Positions 16,994 through 49,321 of a DNA stretch of 64,000 nucleotides are shown here, piece by piece. The translations under genes and the position numbers were made by a program. This DNA is from Escherichia coli (GTDB lineage: Bacteria; Pseudomonadota; Gammaproteobacteria; Enterobacterales; Enterobacteriaceae). The notes beneath the pieces were generated by a model. The model did no database searches. It saw nothing but the letters and a program-made list of their open reading frames with translations, and was not told the DNA's origin. Position 1 is the first letter of the stretch. Each line of letters opens with the position of its first letter. The stretch is from the NCBI RefSeq assembly GCF_024223415.1, contig NZ_CP100500.1. One strand, written 5' to 3'.

Positions 16994-17289
16994 AATGGCT
17001 CACTCAAGCTTGCTCACGATTGATTCCAGTAACAAACCGTATTGTGTAATTATTTCTATAGCAGATCGCTATATAGGCTTGTATACATCGAATAATTTGA
17101 AAATCAAAGAGATAGGTAGATTTTCACTCGAAAGTAGTATTACGTGTAAGTGAGGAGTAATTATTGTTCGGTATCAAAGGGAGACAAAAAAAGCGCCCGC
17201 AGGAGATTTAACGGTACTTACTCCTCTTGCTGATTTCCTTATTTTTCAATAAGTAAACAAAAACAAGGGGAGCAAATTATCACAAATAA

Positions 17290-21332: not shown

Positions 21333-21371
21333 CGGGAACATGGCGAGCGTCAGATGACACACGCAGGGCAC

Positions 21372-21854
21372 TTATCGGGACAAACCGATCGTAATCGCAG
21401 CCATCATCTTTTCAGCGAAAGAGAGAGATTCACGATGACTGATATTCAGAGACATACAGGCTTTGTTGTACGCCACATTTTCCATGCATTCCAGGACAGG
21501 AGAGTCATGCATCTCAAGCTCTGGAAGGCGTGCCAGCAGAGCTTCCGTACTGAGGAGGGCGCTTTTGGTAATCAACTCATTGTAGCGATGGGCATGCTCA
21601 CTCGCCGCCTGCGCACGTTGCCCGAAACGACATATGAAATTACAGGCTCCGAGAACCACCACCACTGCCCCCAGCACCCAGCCGAAATGCCAGCCGGCTA
21701 CGATGAACGCACCCGCCGCAAGGATCAAAATGTTGATGATCGCATCAAGGCGACGATTGAACACCGCCGCGATGCGCTCCAGCCAGTAGCTGTACCAGAG
21801 ACGGAACATGACCTCATCCCGTTCTCTCGATTTTTTACGTTGGTTGTTTTGCAT
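21372..21854 (-). CDS. two-transmembrane-helix protein, reverse-oriented inside the early region (hypothetical)
   Basis: 160 aa; charged N-terminus (MQNNQRKKSRERDE), two adjacent hydrophobic helices (AIINILILAAGAFIVAGWHFGWVLGAVVVVLGACNFI), then a ~90-aa soluble tail. Opposite strand to the flanking early genes. Confidence 0.55.
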   Translation of the reverse strand: MQNNQRKKSRERDEVMFRLWYSYWLERIAAVFNRRLDAIINILILAAGAFIVAGWHFGWVLGAVVVVLGACNFICRFGQRAQAASEHAHRYNELITKSALLSTEALLARLPELEMHDSPVLECMENVAYNKACMSLNISHRESLSFAEKMMAAITIGLSR

Positions 21855-22088
21855 GGTGTTTTATCCCTCATCGTCATCGCTCTGCCCCTAATCAGCGCAG
21901 AGTGCAGGGTAACCTGGCTCGTGGAATTTTTGCAGCCAGACATCTTTACCCCCGGGCGTGTTGAACAAAGTGTCCGCCAGATCCACTGAACGGCGGATTC
22001 ATCAATGCTAACACGCCCTTCTTTTCCGGTTGAAGGCGAAAAAACCGGACCATTACCCCGACACAAAACAGAACAACGGAGAACAACT

Positions 22089-22643
22089 ATGCCCGCACTT
22101 AAACCTATGGGTGTATCAGGTGTACCACCGAAGCATGTCAGAGCCTGGACACAACAGGAAGATGCTCTACTGGTCGGTTTATACCCCTCCCACACCGTAC
22201 CAGAACTGACAAAACACTTTCAGAGAACCGGGCCAGCAATACGAAGCCGCATCCGTCTTTTGCTCTCTCAGGGGGTTATCCACACCAAACAACCCCCCCT
22301 GAATACAAAAGAACTCAACACGCTCATCAGGAATCGCCACACAAAAACCATCCGGGAACTCGCGAATGAACTGGGGCGCTCGACATCCACGGTGGGACTG
22401 AACCTGAGAAAAAGAGGGTACCGGTTCAGGAAATACGGGGAACTCCACCACAGAGCCAGATACAGCGATCACCTGGTGGAGTTGGTAACTGAACTGCGCG
22501 ATGAACAGGGGATGACATTCAGCGAAATCAGAAAGTACATCCGGGACACGACCGGGATATCCCTTAAAAGATGGGTCCTCGCCCGGCTTTACGCACGATA
22601 TACCGCCGCTGACACCGTGCTTTGCGAACTGCTACCGGACTGA
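22089..22643 (+). CDS. hypothetical early protein with repeated helix-rich modules (possible DNA-binding)
   Basis: ORF 22005-22643; ATG at 22089 (MPALKPMGVSG...) follows ggagaacaact. Contains repeated ~45-aa segments. Confidence 0.45.
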   Translation: MPALKPMGVSGVPPKHVRAWTQQEDALLVGLYPSHTVPELTKHFQRTGPAIRSRIRLLLSQGVIHTKQPPLNTKELNTLIRNRHTKTIRELANELGRSTSTVGLNLRKRGYRFRKYGELHHRARYSDHLVELVTELRDEQGMTFSEIRKYIRDTTGISLKRWVLARLYARYTAADTVLCELLPD

Positions 22644-22760
22644 GTAACCACTATGCACACACAAAAAAACCGCTTGCCATGCCGCAATCAGTCAGGTTAC
22701 ATTTCCGCTGCACCTCATAAAACGGGTGCCGGGATTGCAACCCCCGCTGACAAACGAAGC

Positions 22761-22790
22761 GCACAACCGCGCCAGCGGTTTTTTTGTGCG
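22761..22790 (+). terminator. rho-independent terminator (possibly bidirectional)
   Basis: gcacaaccgc-gcca-gcggtt followed by tttttt, embedded in a wider palindrome cgcacaa...ttgtgcg. Confidence 0.6.
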
Positions 22791-22966
22791 TACCGTATCG
22801 CCACGTCTTTTTCGCACCAGAATTATGGTGGGGCGTACGGGGCCGACTTCGGTCGGGCCGGTTTCTTCGTTTGCCGGTGGTTGCAACCCTGTACGTCTCG
22901 CCACCCAGAATTGCAACCTCTGGATGGTGAGTATCCAAAAACTCACAAACGAAGAGGCCAAACACC

Positions 22967-23194
22967 ATGGCAAACCGCAAACAACAGCGCGCATACGCTG
23001 CGCGTCGTCACATCCAGACTGAAATCAACCGCAGACTTTCCCGCGCATTCCGCGTCGCGCATATCATGCACATCAATATGCTGCATGAGCGCAGCCACGC
23101 ACTGTCAAACATGTATTCCGCCGCTGTATTCAGCTACCTGGCGGATGACCTGCGCAAGCTGCAGGACCTCATTAACCAGCACTACCACCACTAA
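22967..23194 (+). CDS. hypothetical protein
   Basis: 75-aa basic ORF (MANRKQQRAYAARRHIQTEINRRLSRAF...). Confidence 0.45.
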   Translation: MANRKQQRAYAARRHIQTEINRRLSRAFRVAHIMHINMLHERSHALSNMYSAAVFSYLADDLRKLQDLINQHYHH

Positions 23195-23262
23195 TCAACA
23201 TCCCGGAGCCATCCCGCCCCCGTACGCGGGAGGCTTCCGCACGTCCGTTTCCGGAGGTTCTC

Positions 23263-23676
23263 ATGAAGAGCGTTAAGGGACTTTCAGATATTCAGGATTT
23301 TTTTAACTGGATGTGGGCGGTGGATCCACGCCTCGCTTCCCGTCTCAATGACCTGCATGACTATTACCGCCGCGCCTGTAAACAGGCCGCCAGCAGCGCC
23401 ACCACATACGGGAATTTTTCCTTCACCGTTGATGACCGTTACCGCGTGGATGTCAGAGACCAGAACCACAGCATGGTGCTGGGCCTGTTCCACATCAACG
23501 GGTGCGACAGCAGCGTTATCAGCTGGTCATCGTCAGAAATGGTGCTCGTTCTGGAAATGACCACCCACAGCGTGGTCGTGAAAGGGATTAAAACAGCAGA
23601 AGACTTTATCGCTGAATACCAGCGCCTTCTTGTGCTGTACCGGGCTGCATTTGAGAAGGCAACAGCAGGGGAGTAA
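23263..23676 (+). CDS. hypothetical protein upstream of the replication gene
   Basis: 137-aa ORF immediately preceding gene A. Confidence 0.5.
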   Translation: MKSVKGLSDIQDFFNWMWAVDPRLASRLNDLHDYYRRACKQAASSATTYGNFSFTVDDRYRVDVRDQNHSMVLGLFHINGCDSSVISWSSSEMVLVLEMTTHSVVVKGIKTAEDFIAEYQRLLVLYRAAFEKATAGE

Positions 23677-23681
23677 GCGGA

Positions 23682-26192
23682 ATGAGCCATCACCACACGC
23701 ACCTGGCGTACCCGTGGAACGCCCCGCTGCCGGTTATTGATCCTGAGACATTCGGCAGAGCATTACCGCAGAAGCCAACCGCATTACAACGGGCAATCCG
23801 TGACTACCTCACCGAAGACATTCGCACTGAGGCCCGGCTGGATGAAGAAACCGTGGCCTTCCTGACAACCACGGACAAAGGTAAGCAAATTAATTCACAC
23901 CTTCACCGGGACGAAGAGCGGCAGATAAGGCTGGATAAGCTGGCACGACACAGACGCGAAAATCCGCCAACGGCGGTATCGGAGGCGATAGCCGAACTTC
24001 GCACCCTGCCCTCGTTTCTTGCCAGTGTGTTGATCCGTGATCTGGCACGACTGAACCGGAAACAGCAAAGTGCCCGCAGTGAAGGTGTAAAAAACAACAG
24101 CGCATACGTGGCCGATAATTTCGTTCGCCGTGGACTGCGTGCGCGCCTGAAACGTATTGAAAGGGTTAACGACCGCTTTGCAACGCCGGCATTCAAAACC
24201 ACCGTCGTGCGCCATCGCCTTGAAGAACTGCTCACACTGCCGCAACTCACCCGTGACGAAATCCAGCGCATCGCCACACTGACAGCCCAGGCATTCGCCG
24301 CAGAATTTGAACGCATATGTGATGAAGTTCTTGAACGGACAGGCAAGGATAATGACAGCCCGGTTATCTGGCTGCTGGCCTACCAGAAGGTGGCACGCAC
24401 AGCCTTAATTCTGGGCGTGGTCCCGCCATACTGGCCGGAACTCGAAATCAGGCACAACCGACGCACACCGCCGGACCCTGAACGGGTTCCGGGTGCGGTA
24501 CTGCGCATCACCTGCGCGACCTGGTGGAACAACCAGTTACGCCACGTCGCCGATCTCTGGCGGGAGGAGTTACTGCGCGCCGCCGGCAGAGTGTCACGTA
24601 AACAATCCCCCTATATCAGCCATGAGTCACTACTGGAGTTCCGCGAGAAGCGCCAGCGCACCCGTGACTTTCTCAAAAGCTGGGATATTGAAAACGAAGA
24701 CGGCGAGCGCCTGAGTCTGGAGGACGTGTACTGGGCTGGCCTGGGTAATCCACGCAACCGCCGCAATGAAATGATGGTCTGCGTCAGAGGGATGGAGATG
24801 GTGGCCGAATTACGGGCTGACGTCGCATTCTTCATCACAGTAACCACCCCTTCCCGCTTTCACAGCGTGAACGAGAACGGCAGCCTGAACCCGAAATACA
24901 ACGGTGCCACAGTACGAGATGCCAGTGATTATCTGGTTTACGACTTCTTCGCAGCCGTAAGAAAAAAAATAAAAAAAGAGGGGCTGGGCTGGTACGGCGT
25001 GCGAACCGCTGAGCCACACCATGACGGCACGCCACACTGGCATATGCTGGTATTCACTTCCCCGGAGAACGCAGAGCGCATCATCGAAATTATGCGCGAA
25101 GCAGCAATTAAATCAGATCGCCACGAACTGGGGGACGATATTTCACCGCGCTTTAAATGCGAGAAGATAGACCCGGAAAAAGGCACACCGGCAAGCTATA
25201 TCGCAACCTATATCGGTAAGAACCTGGACGCCAGCGCTTTCCACAACAATGATCCGAAAACCGGAAAACCTTACGTTGATGAGGAATCCGGGAAAACCAT
25301 GGCGGAAACCGTGGAGAACGCCATTGCCTGGGCAAGCCTTCACCGCATCCGTCAGTTCCAGTTTTTCGGCATTCCGCCCCGCCAGGTATGGCGTGAACTC
25401 CGCCGCCTTGCAAGCCAGATGGAGCGCAACCCGGCATCACCGAAGCACCTCGATCATGACGATATTGACGCCATTATGGCTGCCGCAGATGTGGGATGTT
25501 TTGCCACCTACATCATGAAACAGGGTGGTGTGCTCATTCCGCGCAACCAGTATCTGGTCCGCACCGCATACGAAACCGCAGACGAAGCCAACGACTACGG
25601 TGAATTCCCTCAACGTATCTACGGAATCTGCGCCCCGTCGCTCGGAGAGCGGTACACCATATGCACCCATCCGGACGAGTGGAAACTGGTTAAAAAAGAA
25701 ACAACACCAGACAACCGCACGGGCGAGGGTTTTGACCTTCAGGGCGACCCCGTCGCCCCTTGGACTCGTGGCAATAACTGTCCCCGGGATGAAAAAACAG
25801 ACAATCACGGACCAGAAAACAGGCAGGACCCCGGACGACTGACGCTTCCCGAAGAGAACCTGGAAAGCTGGCTGAATACGTTAAGCAGGGGCGATCGGAG
25901 AAAACTGCGTAATCAGATTAAAAATCAGCCGTCGGGCGCAAAAACCGGACAAAACGACACCACACCGGCATCTGACACCCCTGTAAGGGTGGGGATTGTC
26001 GTGCCTGCGGATACCGCGACGGACACGCAAATCGCCCGCGAACTTGATGCGCTGGGTGTGCAGTTGCCTGACGCGGCCATCATCTCCGTGCGTAACGGTG
26101 CCCGTGTGCGTCTGGATAACGGGGGAACAGCGTACTGGGATGAGTCAGCCCGTCACATCATCACAGAGCAGCCAGTGGAGGCGGGAGCATGA
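23682..26192 (+). CDS. P2 gpA-like rolling-circle replication initiation endonuclease
   Basis: 836 aa with a conserved core including the HxH-type motif (PHWHMLVF) and the surrounding region (FFITVTTPSRFHS...YGVRTAEPHHDGTPHWHMLVF) as in P2/186 A proteins. Confidence 0.85.
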   Translation: MSHHHTHLAYPWNAPLPVIDPETFGRALPQKPTALQRAIRDYLTEDIRTEARLDEETVAFLTTTDKGKQINSHLHRDEERQIRLDKLARHRRENPPTAVSEAIAELRTLPSFLASVLIRDLARLNRKQQSARSEGVKNNSAYVADNFVRRGLRARLKRIERVNDRFATPAFKTTVVRHRLEELLTLPQLTRDEIQRIATLTAQAFAAEFERICDEVLERTGKDNDSPVIWLLAYQKVARTALILGVVPPYWPELEIRHNRRTPPDPERVPGAVLRITCATWWNNQLRHVADLWREELLRAAGRVSRKQSPYISHESLLEFREKRQRTRDFLKSWDIENEDGERLSLEDVYWAGLGNPRNRRNEMMVCVRGMEMVAELRADVAFFITVTTPSRFHSVNENGSLNPKYNGATVRDASDYLVYDFFAAVRKKIKKEGLGWYGVRTAEPHHDGTPHWHMLVFTSPENAERIIEIMREAAIKSDRHELGDDISPRFKCEKIDPEKGTPASYIATYIGKNLDASAFHNNDPKTGKPYVDEESGKTMAETVENAIAWASLHRIRQFQFFGIPPRQVWRELRRLASQMERNPASPKHLDHDDIDAIMAAADVGCFATYIMKQGGVLIPRNQYLVRTAYETADEANDYGEFPQRIYGICAPSLGERYTICTHPDEWKLVKKETTPDNRTGEGFDLQGDPVAPWTRGNNCPRDEKTDNHGPENRQDPGRLTLPEENLESWLNTLSRGDRRKLRNQIKNQPSGAKTGQNDTTPASDTPVRVGIVVPADTATDTQIARELDALGVQLPDAAIISVRNGARVRLDNGGTAYWDESARHIITEQPVEAGA

Positions 26193-48038: not shown

Positions 48039-49321
48039 TAAGCACCTCCAAGCGTCGCAAATGCAGGACCAAAGAATTCATCAGTAAACGTCTGGTAAAG
48101 TTCCATATCCTCAAGCGGCGGAACGGGCGTGTACTTGTAGCGGATACGCACGCGTCCCTGACGAAGTTCCGTGGTGCTGTTATCCACCACGTCATACCAG
48201 CACTCCGCACCAATGAGACGTCCTGACGTAACCAGCGCATCCAGTTTTGCGCGAATTGCGCTTAACACGTCTTTCACATTAGCAGGGGTCAGCGGGGCAT
48301 CAATCGTTTCAAACTGCGCTTCCGCAATGGAATCAGCCAGCACCTGAGCGGTTCGCGTGTACACCTCAAAGATATACGCCTTCGTTTCCGGCGTACGGTT
48401 GCCCCAGAAGCGGAAACCGTTACGGCAAATGATGGTAGTGATTTCCTTGTTGTTGAGATTGTTGGCATCGCTGTCTTCGGACTGAAGGGACCAGAACACC
48501 GGGCTGGAAATACCCAGCACATTTGTTACCGGCACGTTGGACAGCGATTTATGCCAGCCCTGTTCGTGGTCAATACGTGCACGTAAACCGCAGGCGTACG
48601 CCGCAGCCGGGAAGACCTCATTAGCGCCGGATTTCGGGTTATAGGCGATGAAGTCAGGCCAGAGCAGCATAAGTTCGCGCTCGTTAAATCTGGCGCGGTA
48701 GCTGATTGCATCAGCGGGCTTCTTGCAGTTGTGACAGCCCGCGTAGACAAATGCGCGAAGTTTTTCTGCAATTACACACAGGGATTTTGTGACAGCTTCA
48801 GTATCCAGTCCGGGAGCTGCGATGATGCGCGGACGGTAACCGATGGCATCATCCTGTTCAGCTATCAGAAGTGCATACATACCGGTATAATTACCGTCGC
48901 CATCCGTGCCACCAATGACATACTGGTCCTGCGTTTTGTGTGGGTATACAGGATGTGCATCTTCAGACTCATCAATACCAAAAAATGCCCTGTCTTCAGG
49001 ATCCAGATGACCGAATGATGTAACTCCTGTATCCGGGGCGCCCTGAGAACTGGTATCAGGAACGCGCACCACAATCACCTTCGTGCTCACCTGGTCGGCG
49101 ACAGCCTTAAGCGATTTGTAAAGCGTCCCCTTTGTGCCGGCCTTACCCAGCACATCACTGACGCGGGTCAGCAGTGTGGGTTTGTTCAGCGGGAACAGAG
49201 TTTCATCCGCGTCATCTGCCGTAGCCACAATACCAATAACACTGGAATCCACATCATTAATGGCGGTGGCAAGGCCGGTACTTTCCCTTACGCGCGCACC
49301 ATGAAAGCGTGTTTCACTCAT
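48038..49321 (-). CDS. P2 gpFI-like tail sheath protein
   Basis: ORF 48038-49468; start placed at MSETRFHGARV... (49321). Blocks ...FPLNKPTLLT...GTKGTLYKSL..., ...LRARIDHEQGWHKSLSNV..., ...RNGFRFWGNRT..., ...YTRTAQV..., ...YTPVPPLE... parallel P2 FI. Confidence 0.88.
   Translation of the reverse strand: MSETRFHGARVRESTGLATAINDVDSSVIGIVATADDADETLFPLNKPTLLTRVSDVLGKAGTKGTLYKSLKAVADQVSTKVIVVRVPDTSSQGAPDTGVTSFGHLDPEDRAFFGIDESEDAHPVYPHKTQDQYVIGGTDGDGNYTGMYALLIAEQDDAIGYRPRIIAAPGLDTEAVTKSLCVIAEKLRAFVYAGCHNCKKPADAISYRARFNERELMLLWPDFIAYNPKSGANEVFPAAAYACGLRARIDHEQGWHKSLSNVPVTNVLGISSPVFWSLQSEDSDANNLNNKEITTIICRNGFRFWGNRTPETKAYIFEVYTRTAQVLADSIAEAQFETIDAPLTPANVKDVLSAIRAKLDALVTSGRLIGAECWYDVVDNSTTELRQGRVRIRYKYTPVPPLEDMELYQTFTDEFFGPAFATLGGA

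Follow-up and report, generated by a model that had tools for sequence, protein, structure and literature searches.

Introduction

RNAs of the C4 type, known from phages P1 and P4, are cut from a longer precursor, with RNase P acting at the 5′ end and a tRNA-like CCA at the 3′ end. Ravin and colleagues are said to have found in 1999 that a processed RNA of N15 brings about premature termination of the anti-repressor operon. In P4, the immunity region consists, in order, of the promoter PLE, the seqA leader, the CI RNA with seqB, seqC, kil/eta, epsilon and alpha. IsrK is the counterpart of P4 seqA and C4 that of the P4 CI RNA, and the pair has been named the 'IsrK-C4 immunity system' (PMC3632133); IsrK has also been described as homologous to seqA in structure and as followed by a processed RNA (PMC4825925). 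The c4 RNA stops the translation of ant at its ribosome-binding site, and differences between alleles result in heteroimmunity (PMC12197685). The P4 eta frame is translated only from an upstream promoter, and its translation prevents termination (PMC10111431). Different roles are proposed for the upstream target sites in the model systems, namely to promote termination in P4 and, in Gifsy-1, to lock the transcript in an inactive fold and serve as an activator RNA; the P1 record calls them 'putative'.

Here, we describe an unannotated gap in a prophage of Escherichia coli that is very probably an IsrK-C4 antisense-RNA immunity cassette of the P4/N15/P1 type, carried by a P88-type P2-like prophage. 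The cassette is an ordinary member of an already known system. What is mildly new is its presence in a P2-like helper-type phage, the breadth of its specificity alleles, and a conserved open reading frame (ORF) resembling eta.

Results

An unannotated gap in a P88-type prophage

The window, by which we mean the whole 64-kb stretch of the E. coli chromosome analysed, carries a P2-like (P88-type, Xuanwuvirus) prophage, the nearest named relatives of which are P88 and Citrobacter phage Shae_phiSM, both of the genus Xuanwuvirus. In the RefSeq annotation, the prophage begins with an integrase gene, a gene on the opposite strand for a helix-turn-helix C-type repressor, cox and several small genes, after which come a gene for a 184-aa DNA-binding protein (22089-22643) and the gap, which carries no annotation of any kind. 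On the 3′ side of the gap, RefSeq places a 75-aa 'derepression protein' (22967-23194), a 137-aa protein and an 836-aa replication endonuclease, which matches the Pfam family Phage_GPA (E = 2e-104). Portal, terminase and capsid genes lie beyond, so that this is a complete P2-like prophage. It has a C repressor/Cox switch of the P2 type already, and a need for a second layer of control is presumed. Among 5426 complete E. coli genomes, 1219 contain near matches to the cassette stretch, and chicken isolates such as DG341-1 are among the closest (100% identity). The features discussed below are as follows.

22653-23276, + strand: ORF of 207 codons, analogue of P4 eta (list of ORFs; frame open in relatives)
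22674-22703, + strand: sigma-70 promoter-like site, TTGCCA-18-TACATT (consensus scan)
22710-22785, + strand: IsrK-family leader RNA, counterpart of P4 seqA (Rfam RF01394, 61.9 bits)
22735-22742, + strand: upstream target b1, TTGCAACC, complement of the C4 junction segment b′
22751-22759, + strand: upstream target a1, CAAACGAAG, complement of the C4 hairpin-2 loop a′
22765-22786, + strand: intrinsic terminator at the end of the leader (last hairpin in the isrK model, plus U7)
22821-22908, + strand: C4 antisense RNA, counterpart of P4 CI RNA (Rfam RF01695, 79.3 bits)
22843-22856, + strand: C4 hairpin 1 with UUCG tetraloop, structural and not target-pairing
22865-22873, + strand: specificity segment a′, CUUCGUUUG, in the 12-nt loop of C4 hairpin 2
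22879-22888, + strand: specificity segment b′, palindrome GGUUGCAACC, in the C4 multiloop junction
22911-22918, + strand: downstream target b2, TTGCAACC, complement of b′
22946-22959, + strand: downstream target a2, CAAACGAAGAGGCC, complement of a′, overlapping the Shine-Dalgarno sequence
22967-23194, + strand: 75-aa epsilon-like gene (BLASTP, Pfam, RefSeq product name)

Repeated motifs and two RNA families

An initial annotation made from the letters of this stretch had reported repeats, a hairpin and a terminator in the gap, and all of these motifs were recovered at or near the positions reported. Copies of TTGCAACC lie at 22735-22742, 22881-22888 and 22911-22918, the middle one within the perfect palindrome GGTTGCAACC (22879-22888); the UUCG hairpin, CCGAC-UUCG-GUCGG, spans 22843-22856, and the terminator, AACCGC-GCCA-GCGGUU followed by U7, spans 22765-22786. 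A duplicated decamer, ACAAACGAAG, is present on the + strand at 22750-22759 and 22945-22954; in the 11-nt form in which it had been quoted, cacaaacgaag, however, it is exact in the second copy only, the first copy reading gACAAACGAAG. The motifs are clustered beyond chance. In the whole window, TTGCAACC has six matches on both strands against 3.45 expected, four of them within 184 nt here, and ACAAACGAAG matches only at its two cassette sites against 0.14 expected. Two relationships had been overlooked: CTTCGTTTG at 22865-22873, the reverse complement of the second repeat, occupies a hairpin loop between the copies of that repeat, and the middle copy of TTGCAACC is the functional complement of the outer two.

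The annotation had also suggested that part of the gap could encode a small RNA, to be checked by an Rfam scan. The scan returned isrK and C4, both above the curated gathering thresholds, and both were also recovered when the whole window was scanned. The unit proposed as a small RNA, gggattgcaacc...gcggttttttt, forms the 3′ two-thirds of the IsrK-family leader (RF01394), and the UUCG hairpin is part of the other RNA, C4 (RF01695; 79.3 bits against a threshold of 45). Both matches are full length, covering positions 1-77 of 77 in the isrK model (61.9 bits against a gathering threshold of 50, E = 3e-12) and positions 1-87 of 87 in the C4 model (E = 2.6e-15), and C4 begins 35 nt 3′ of the leader. 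Rfam finds the same tandem of isrK and C4 in P88, Shae_phiSM, N15, P4, phiP27, mEp460, Salmonella F1055/sal3, Stx2 phages and Klebsiella NAR688, with a spacing of 24-35 nt between the members of a pair and of 107 nt in P4. The GenBank record of one Stx2 phage has an 'isrK Hfq binding RNA' and a 'C4 antisense RNA' annotated; in several GenBank phage records, protein-coding sequences are laid over the RNAs.

The promoter-like site at 22674-22703, the only one within 22500-23100, ends 6 nt 5′ of the start of the IsrK model, and transcription from it would begin at about 22710, the first base of the model. Comparable promoters lie 5-8 nt 5′ of the IsrK start in P4 (at the position of PLE), N15, lambdoid/Stx phages and P88. 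The leader consists, in order, of hairpin 1, hairpin 2 presenting b1, the single-stranded a1 and the terminator; in its minimum-free-energy (MFE) fold, hairpin 1 and the terminator are formed, and the fold is modestly better than those of shuffled sequences (z = −2.1). The equivalent stem-loop in the GenBank record of N15 is labelled as a putative rho-independent terminator. Two features of isrK, a promoter of its own and a rho-independent terminator, are present here at the level of sequence matches.

The MFE structure of C4 is the Rfam fold (−46.4 kcal/mol, z = −5.1; equalled by none of 200 shuffles), in which a long closing stem surrounds two hairpins, with the hairpin-2 loop and a junction strand unpaired. 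These unpaired regions hold a′ and b′, the core of b′ being GUUGCAA (22880-22886). Across 36 variants, pairing is 100% at all 27 stem pairs, three of them having changed on both sides, and two pairs of hairpin 1 covary in relatives. From homology with the annotated c4 RNA of P1, which the P1 record places at 48343-48419 within an Rfam C4 match at 48337-48422, the mature C4 RNA is predicted to span about 22827-22905. The sequence at its 3′ end is GCCACCCAG; in P1, the homologous RNA ends in ...CCACC.

Target sites and the downstream gene

The segments a′ and b′ are each complementary to one site in the leader and one site downstream of C4. The duplex of b′ with b1 has a predicted energy of −20.5 kcal/mol, reached by 2 of 1000 shuffles, and that with b2 extends over just 8 bp, with an energy (−13.3 kcal/mol) that 7% of shuffles equal. 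At a2, C4 positions 22860-22873 pair with 22946-22959 over 14 bp (−21.7 kcal/mol; 0 of 1000 shuffles as good), and this pairing covers AAGAGG (22952-22957), the Shine-Dalgarno sequence of the 75-aa gene. Taken together, a′ and b′ pair with the leader at −32.8 kcal/mol and with the downstream region at −36.7 kcal/mol.

The 75-aa protein is, by sequence similarity, a distant homologue of the P4 derepression protein epsilon: BLASTP aligns the two with 29% identity over 66 aa (E = 3e-8), and the Pfam match to Derepression (PF25738) scores 28.2 bits, just above the cut-off of 27. No Pfam family was found for the 137-aa protein encoded next. We considered the latter as a relative of P4 orf151 and found no similarity between the two.

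Complementarity is maintained while the sites change

If the repeats act by pairing with C4, complementarity should persist among alleles that differ in sequence. We compared 12 diverse phages, including P4, N15, lambdoid phages and Stx phages, by defining the cores through fixed C4 columns (nine hairpin-2 loop bases for a′ and seven junction bases for b′) and searching each phage's own flanks for complements of its own cores. A MAFFT alignment of the 12 modules set the short sites out of register, and the fixed columns were used instead. All 12 have a complement of b′ at leader offset 25 and again 2-7 nt 3′ of C4, and a complement of a′ at about leader offset 40 and again 33-37 nt 3′ of C4, where it directly precedes the Shine-Dalgarno sequence. 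Both target copies follow each of the 11 distinct a′ cores and nine distinct b′ cores, and cognate duplexes are clearly better in energy than non-cognate ones. Because most departures from perfect complementarity are G-U wobbles in the + strand transcript, the sites appear to be recognised by RNA pairing rather than as DNA.

These alleles also clarify the geometry of the repeats. The b copies in the window resemble direct repeats because TTGCAA is its own reverse complement; other b′ alleles are non-palindromic, GTGGAAA going with TTTCCAC and GTTCCAA with TTGGAAC. In P88, the three b positions read TTTCCAC / GTGGAAA / TTTCCAC and the three a positions CAACTACAG / CTGTAGTTG / CAACTACAG, and in Shae_phiSM, the b positions read TTGGAAC / GTTCCAA / TTGGAAC. 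As these alleles indicate, the true arrangement is site/antisite/site.

Close relatives were collected by using the 75-aa protein as a query against viral contigs, which gave 80 loci, and C4 lies upstream in all 80. They contain 20 combinations of a′ and b′, each with complementary sites; the mean pairing at the sites is 9.0/9, 8.7/9, 7.0/7 and 7.0/7, against non-cognate means of 5.1-7.2. For formal pair counts we used an alignment of close relatives comprising 36 distinct modules, in which pairing over the whole tested structure reaches 99.5% for the upstream sites and 99.3% for the downstream sites, compared with 37-45% in controls that shift the partner by 1-3 columns. Changes on both sides affect 11 of 16 target pairs upstream and 10 of 16 downstream: 4 of 7 at b1 (99% paired), 7 of 9 at a1 (99%), 4 of 7 at b2 (100%) and 6 of 9 at a2 (97%).

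In P2-like prophages that are nearly identical elsewhere, a and b alleles are reassorted independently of each other. Shae_phiSM and phiP27 have the same b′ and different a′ segments, and the window and NAR688 have most of a′ in common and differ in b′. In one relative (L085), the leader sites mismatch its own C4.

The covariation that had been named as a check on the small RNA is present, both partners having changed in 10-11 of 16 target pairs in the 36 modules. As for the expectation that the repeats would be conserved in related prophages, it is borne out for their position and complementarity but not for the site sequence itself, which is variable. The suggestion that the repeats bind a regulator or a replication protein gives way to a better explanation, namely that they are sites of RNA:RNA pairing, their complementarity being kept across alleles.

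A long open reading frame across the cassette

The 207-codon ORF begins with an ATG 10 nt 3′ of the stop codon of the 184-aa gene and 21 nt 5′ of the −35 element of the cassette promoter, crosses the leader, the terminator, C4 and the target sites, runs through the epsilon-like gene in the +1 frame, and stops 14 nt into the ORF of the 137-aa protein. Its frame is open in nearly all of the approximately 80 related loci despite the hypervariable sites. Among 42 distinct sequences, none of the 28 polymorphic stop sites is in this frame, all of them belonging to the other two, and within the epsilon-like gene (45 variants), there are 10 stop sites in the +2 frame and none in the frame of the ORF. 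In the window allele, one additional base in b1 is balanced by one base fewer 5′ of b2. The position of the ATG, right after the upstream stop codon, is kept across several unrelated left junctions. The equivalent ORF of P4, eta, is open from −314 to +339 relative to C4, and several lambdoid phages have a long ORF in frame with the downstream gene; in N15, NAR688 and P1, a long ORF spanning the RNAs was not found. No Pfam match was found for the 207-aa product, and its only PHROG match is weak and of unknown function. By analogy with eta, the ORF may be translated, and the comparative data suggest that the 'translate-through' device of P4 eta is conserved in a helper-type phage.

We also considered that a 21-nt inverted repeat (22657-22677 / 22771-22791) might provide an upstream antiterminator arm and so take upstream transcripts past the terminator, as the MFE structure of 22644-22800 forms this helix (z = −4.9). 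Both arms are invariant in the P88-like group, so covariation is lacking, and one relative (L040) carries an uncompensated G-to-A change; the arm is missing from the lambdoid, N15 and P4 versions. Moreover, it overlaps the −35 element and an A-tract, for which a promoter UP-like element is a simpler account. The eta-like ORF is the better supported of the two routes past the terminator.

Discussion

Alternative explanations for the repeats

Might the repeats instead be operators or iterons, recognised on DNA by the 184-aa protein or by replication protein A? The three b copies and the three a copies are the same short sequences in direct, inverted and direct orientation, which a protein could in principle recognise, and a gene for a DNA-binding protein lies directly upstream and gene A downstream. 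Yet the central copies coincide exactly with the loop and junction left unpaired in an RNA described by a curated covariance model, a2 overlaps a ribosome-binding site, and most mismatches in the 12 diverse phages are transitions that preserve G-U pairs in the + strand transcript. A protein would have had to change its specificity 20 times among phages whose neighbouring proteins are 82-100% identical, and the same layout recurs in P4 (with alpha), N15 and lambdoid phages, the flanking genes and replication systems of which are unrelated. We therefore regard recognition of the repeats as DNA as extremely unlikely. It is also very unlikely that the gap is a decaying remnant of a P4-like cassette, gained by recombination and now without function. 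The cassette is indeed mosaic, with its a and b specificities reassorting independently and with the mismatched leader of L085, but the four targets, the promoter, the terminator, the C4 stems and the long frame are kept in nearly all 80 loci, despite extensive sequence turnover at the sites, and near matches are found in 1219 of the 5426 complete E. coli genomes.

The remaining alternatives accept the two RNAs and differ in what they do. In a scheme of the P1 type, C4 would act at a2 and b2 only, and the upstream sites and terminator would have no regulatory part. The a2/b2 pair is the functional target in P1, where the record lists a1/b1 as 'putative', and the duplex of a′ with a2 is the strongest in the window; nevertheless, the upstream sites are as strictly conserved in position and complementarity as the downstream ones, the leader belongs to the isrK/P4-seqA family and not to P1 c4-a1b1, and the upstream sites are separated from C4 by an intrinsic terminator, which is also the case in P4 and N15. 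We consider this scheme unlikely. Positive control of the Gifsy-1 type, in which the read-through transcript is inactive in cis and a short IsrK-like RNA opens it in trans, so that IsrK rather than C4 would be the main regulator, is a minor possibility. The MFE structure of the whole leader region (22710-22975, z = −4.8) pairs b1/a1 with a′/b′ in cis, in a fold that resembles the 'structure A' shown experimentally in Gifsy-1 (PMC4825925), and the short leader bears perfect decoy sites for C4. Such control leaves unexplained the equally tight covariation of b2/a2 and the cover of the ribosome-binding site; furthermore, the orf45 through which IsrK works in Gifsy-1 begins in the C4-like region, and the corresponding ATG here, at 22825, opens an ORF of non-conserved length in the relatives. 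It is, however, compatible with the IsrK-C4 immunity cassette rather than exclusive of it, and a component in which IsrK acts as an activator is plausible here.

A model for regulation by the cassette

Returning to the IsrK-C4 immunity cassette, we infer its processing, read-through and regulatory outcome from the studied homologues, namely P1/P7 c4, P4 CI RNA, N15 and Gifsy-1 IsrK. Part of the transcripts would read through the leader terminator, and C4 would be excised from these as a stable RNA of about 79 nt. In a lysogen, C4 would pair with a2/b2 and block translation of the epsilon-like anti-repressor, and polarity would lower the expression of the 137-aa gene and of replication gene A. 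On the nascent leader, C4 bound to a1/b1 would favour a stop at the terminator, and the short terminated leader might titrate C4. Immunity specificity would be set by the two short variable segments, and this could be why there are many alleles. Transcripts from the early promoter, by contrast with those controlled in this way, might escape because they carry the start codon of the eta-like ORF and would be translated across the cassette. A by-eye search of the spacer for a LexA box that could link the cassette to SOS induction found no full site.

We speculate further that the cassette forms part of a two-promoter switch, a tentative proposal that we hold to be possible rather than probable, in which a P4-style cassette has been placed in the early operon of a P88-type phage just 5′ of the replication gene. 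Transcripts from the cassette's own promoter would be held in check by C4, and the only role of the 207-codon ORF would be its translation across the terminator and C4 on transcripts from the early promoter. The ORF would run out of frame through the epsilon-like gene and end at the start of the next gene, so that the replication genes would be on while both the control by the cassette and epsilon are bypassed. The at least 20 freely reassorting two-part specificities would then constitute an RNA-coded second layer of immunity, possibly aimed also at P4-like satellites.

As a discovery, this locus means little: Rfam has curated families for the two RNAs, and an antisite flanked by two sites is the textbook design of P1 c4 and P4 CI RNA. 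It does offer a clean natural example of two short RNA segments encoding immunity specificity.

Comparison with known systems

The anti-immunity region of N15 resembles this cassette in having isrK and C4 equally far apart and separated by a stem-loop annotated as a rho-independent terminator, and differs in its downstream genes (gp32-gp30) and in having no long ORF over the RNAs. The Gifsy-1 locus of Salmonella (IsrK, STnc1160/orf45 and AnrP) has an IsrK-family leader, a partly read-through terminator, a processed C4-like RNA and an anti-repressor-type gene (PMC4825925), and the cis pairing of leader and C4 is predicted here as well. In Gifsy-1, however, short IsrK activates through translation of orf45 coupled to anrP; a conserved equivalent of orf45 was not seen in our cassette, and the downstream gene is unrelated to AnrP.

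The immI region of P1/P7 shares a C4-family RNA (68.8 bits in P1) and two short complementary segments that are repeated upstream and downstream, the downstream set lying at the ribosome-binding site of a small first gene; the P1 GenBank record shows a1, b1, a2 and b2 around c4, ahead of icd and ant. The leader of P1 is c4-a1b1 (RF03163) and not isrK, and RF03163, which matches P1, has no match in 21500-24000 here even at E up to 10. The order of the sites is reversed, a preceding b in P1 and following it here, and where P1 has icd/ant downstream, our cassette is followed by a member of the Derepression family and a protein without a family.

P4 differs from the present locus in several respects. 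The spacer between terminator and C4 is 107 nt in P4 and 35 nt here. P4 has kil, in frame with eta; here kil is absent, the epsilon-like gene comes first after C4, and the long ORF is out of frame and overlaps that gene entirely. The replication gene is of the P2 gpA type here and alpha primase in P4, and P4 is a satellite, whereas the host element here is a complete P2-like phage. The likeness to P4 nevertheless extends through the whole design. P4 has RNAs of the same families in the same order (isrK at 8692-8615 and C4 at 8507-8420, minus strand), with targets that flank the RNA on both sides, the second lying at the ribosome-binding site of the first downstream gene; its seqA, seqB and seqC show the same complementarity and score alike in the same test. 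In both, an epsilon-family gene lies downstream, and a long ORF that starts 5′ of the internal promoter spans the RNAs.

Recombination and self-complementarity in the cassette

The cassette of the P2-like (P88-type) prophage consists of an IsrK-like leader RNA followed by the C4 antisense RNA. One of the approximately 80 close-relative loci, L085, carries a natural recombinant of it (L085:223-483), in which the leader sites, TTTCCAC and CAAACGAAG, match neither the C4 RNA of the same locus (TTGAGAA and CTTTGCTCT) nor the downstream sites there. The terminator of L085 is also altered, in its 5′ half.

In the window, the allele of b', an unpaired specificity segment of C4, is a perfect palindrome, GGUUGCAACC (22879-22888), with a self-duplex energy of −17.9 kcal/mol, versus −1 to −3 for other alleles. 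On this modelled pairing, C4 RNA could dimerise, or one target site could pair with another.

Further complementary segments lie in and around the RNA genes:

22657-22677 and 22771-22791, arms of a 21-nt inverted repeat (90% complementary)
22794-22804, CGTATCGCCAC, near copy of the C4 closing stem's 3′ strand, in the terminator-C4 spacer
22894-22904, CGTCTCGCCAC, that 3′ strand itself
22923-22932, GGATGGTGAG, another near copy, this one of the stem's 5′ strand, after downstream site b2

The left arm of the inverted repeat, on the cassette's left edge, is an A-tract/CCGC element, and the right arm is the 3′ half of the terminator with its U-tract. The repeat does not vary among P88-like phages and is missing from other families, and no covariation was found between its arms; its role may be that of a promoter UP-like element or of an antiterminator. 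The near copies CGTATCGCCAC and GGATGGTGAG may allow the precursor to pair in other ways.

Long reading frames across and near the RNA genes

Window features:

17084-17218, plus strand, STnc130 (Rfam RF02084, 125.8 bits)
21354-21989, plus strand, unannotated 211-aa ORF
21372-21854, minus strand, 160-aa gene
22653-23276, plus strand, 207-codon ORF

STnc130 adjoins the prophage end, between dmsA and the integrase gene. The 160-aa gene breaks an otherwise rightward early operon; the 211-aa ORF overlaps it and shows that the region does hold long unannotated ORFs. The start of the 207-codon ORF precedes the promoter that belongs to the cassette itself. The ORF covers both RNA genes and the entire epsilon-like gene, the latter out of frame, and reaches its stop where the next gene begins. 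Of the ~80 relatives, nearly all keep this frame unbroken, hypervariable sites notwithstanding.

GenBank draws protein CDSs over isrK and C4:

L002:5033-5221 (P88), strand opposite to the RNAs
L008:841-1992 (mEp460)
L009:847-2004 (F1055)
L011:1147-1806 (phiP27)

The opposite-strand P88 CDS is probably spurious. The lambdoid CDSs are long ORFs, in frame with a downstream anti-repressor-type gene, and resemble P4 eta, whose layout is also that of the 207-codon ORF.
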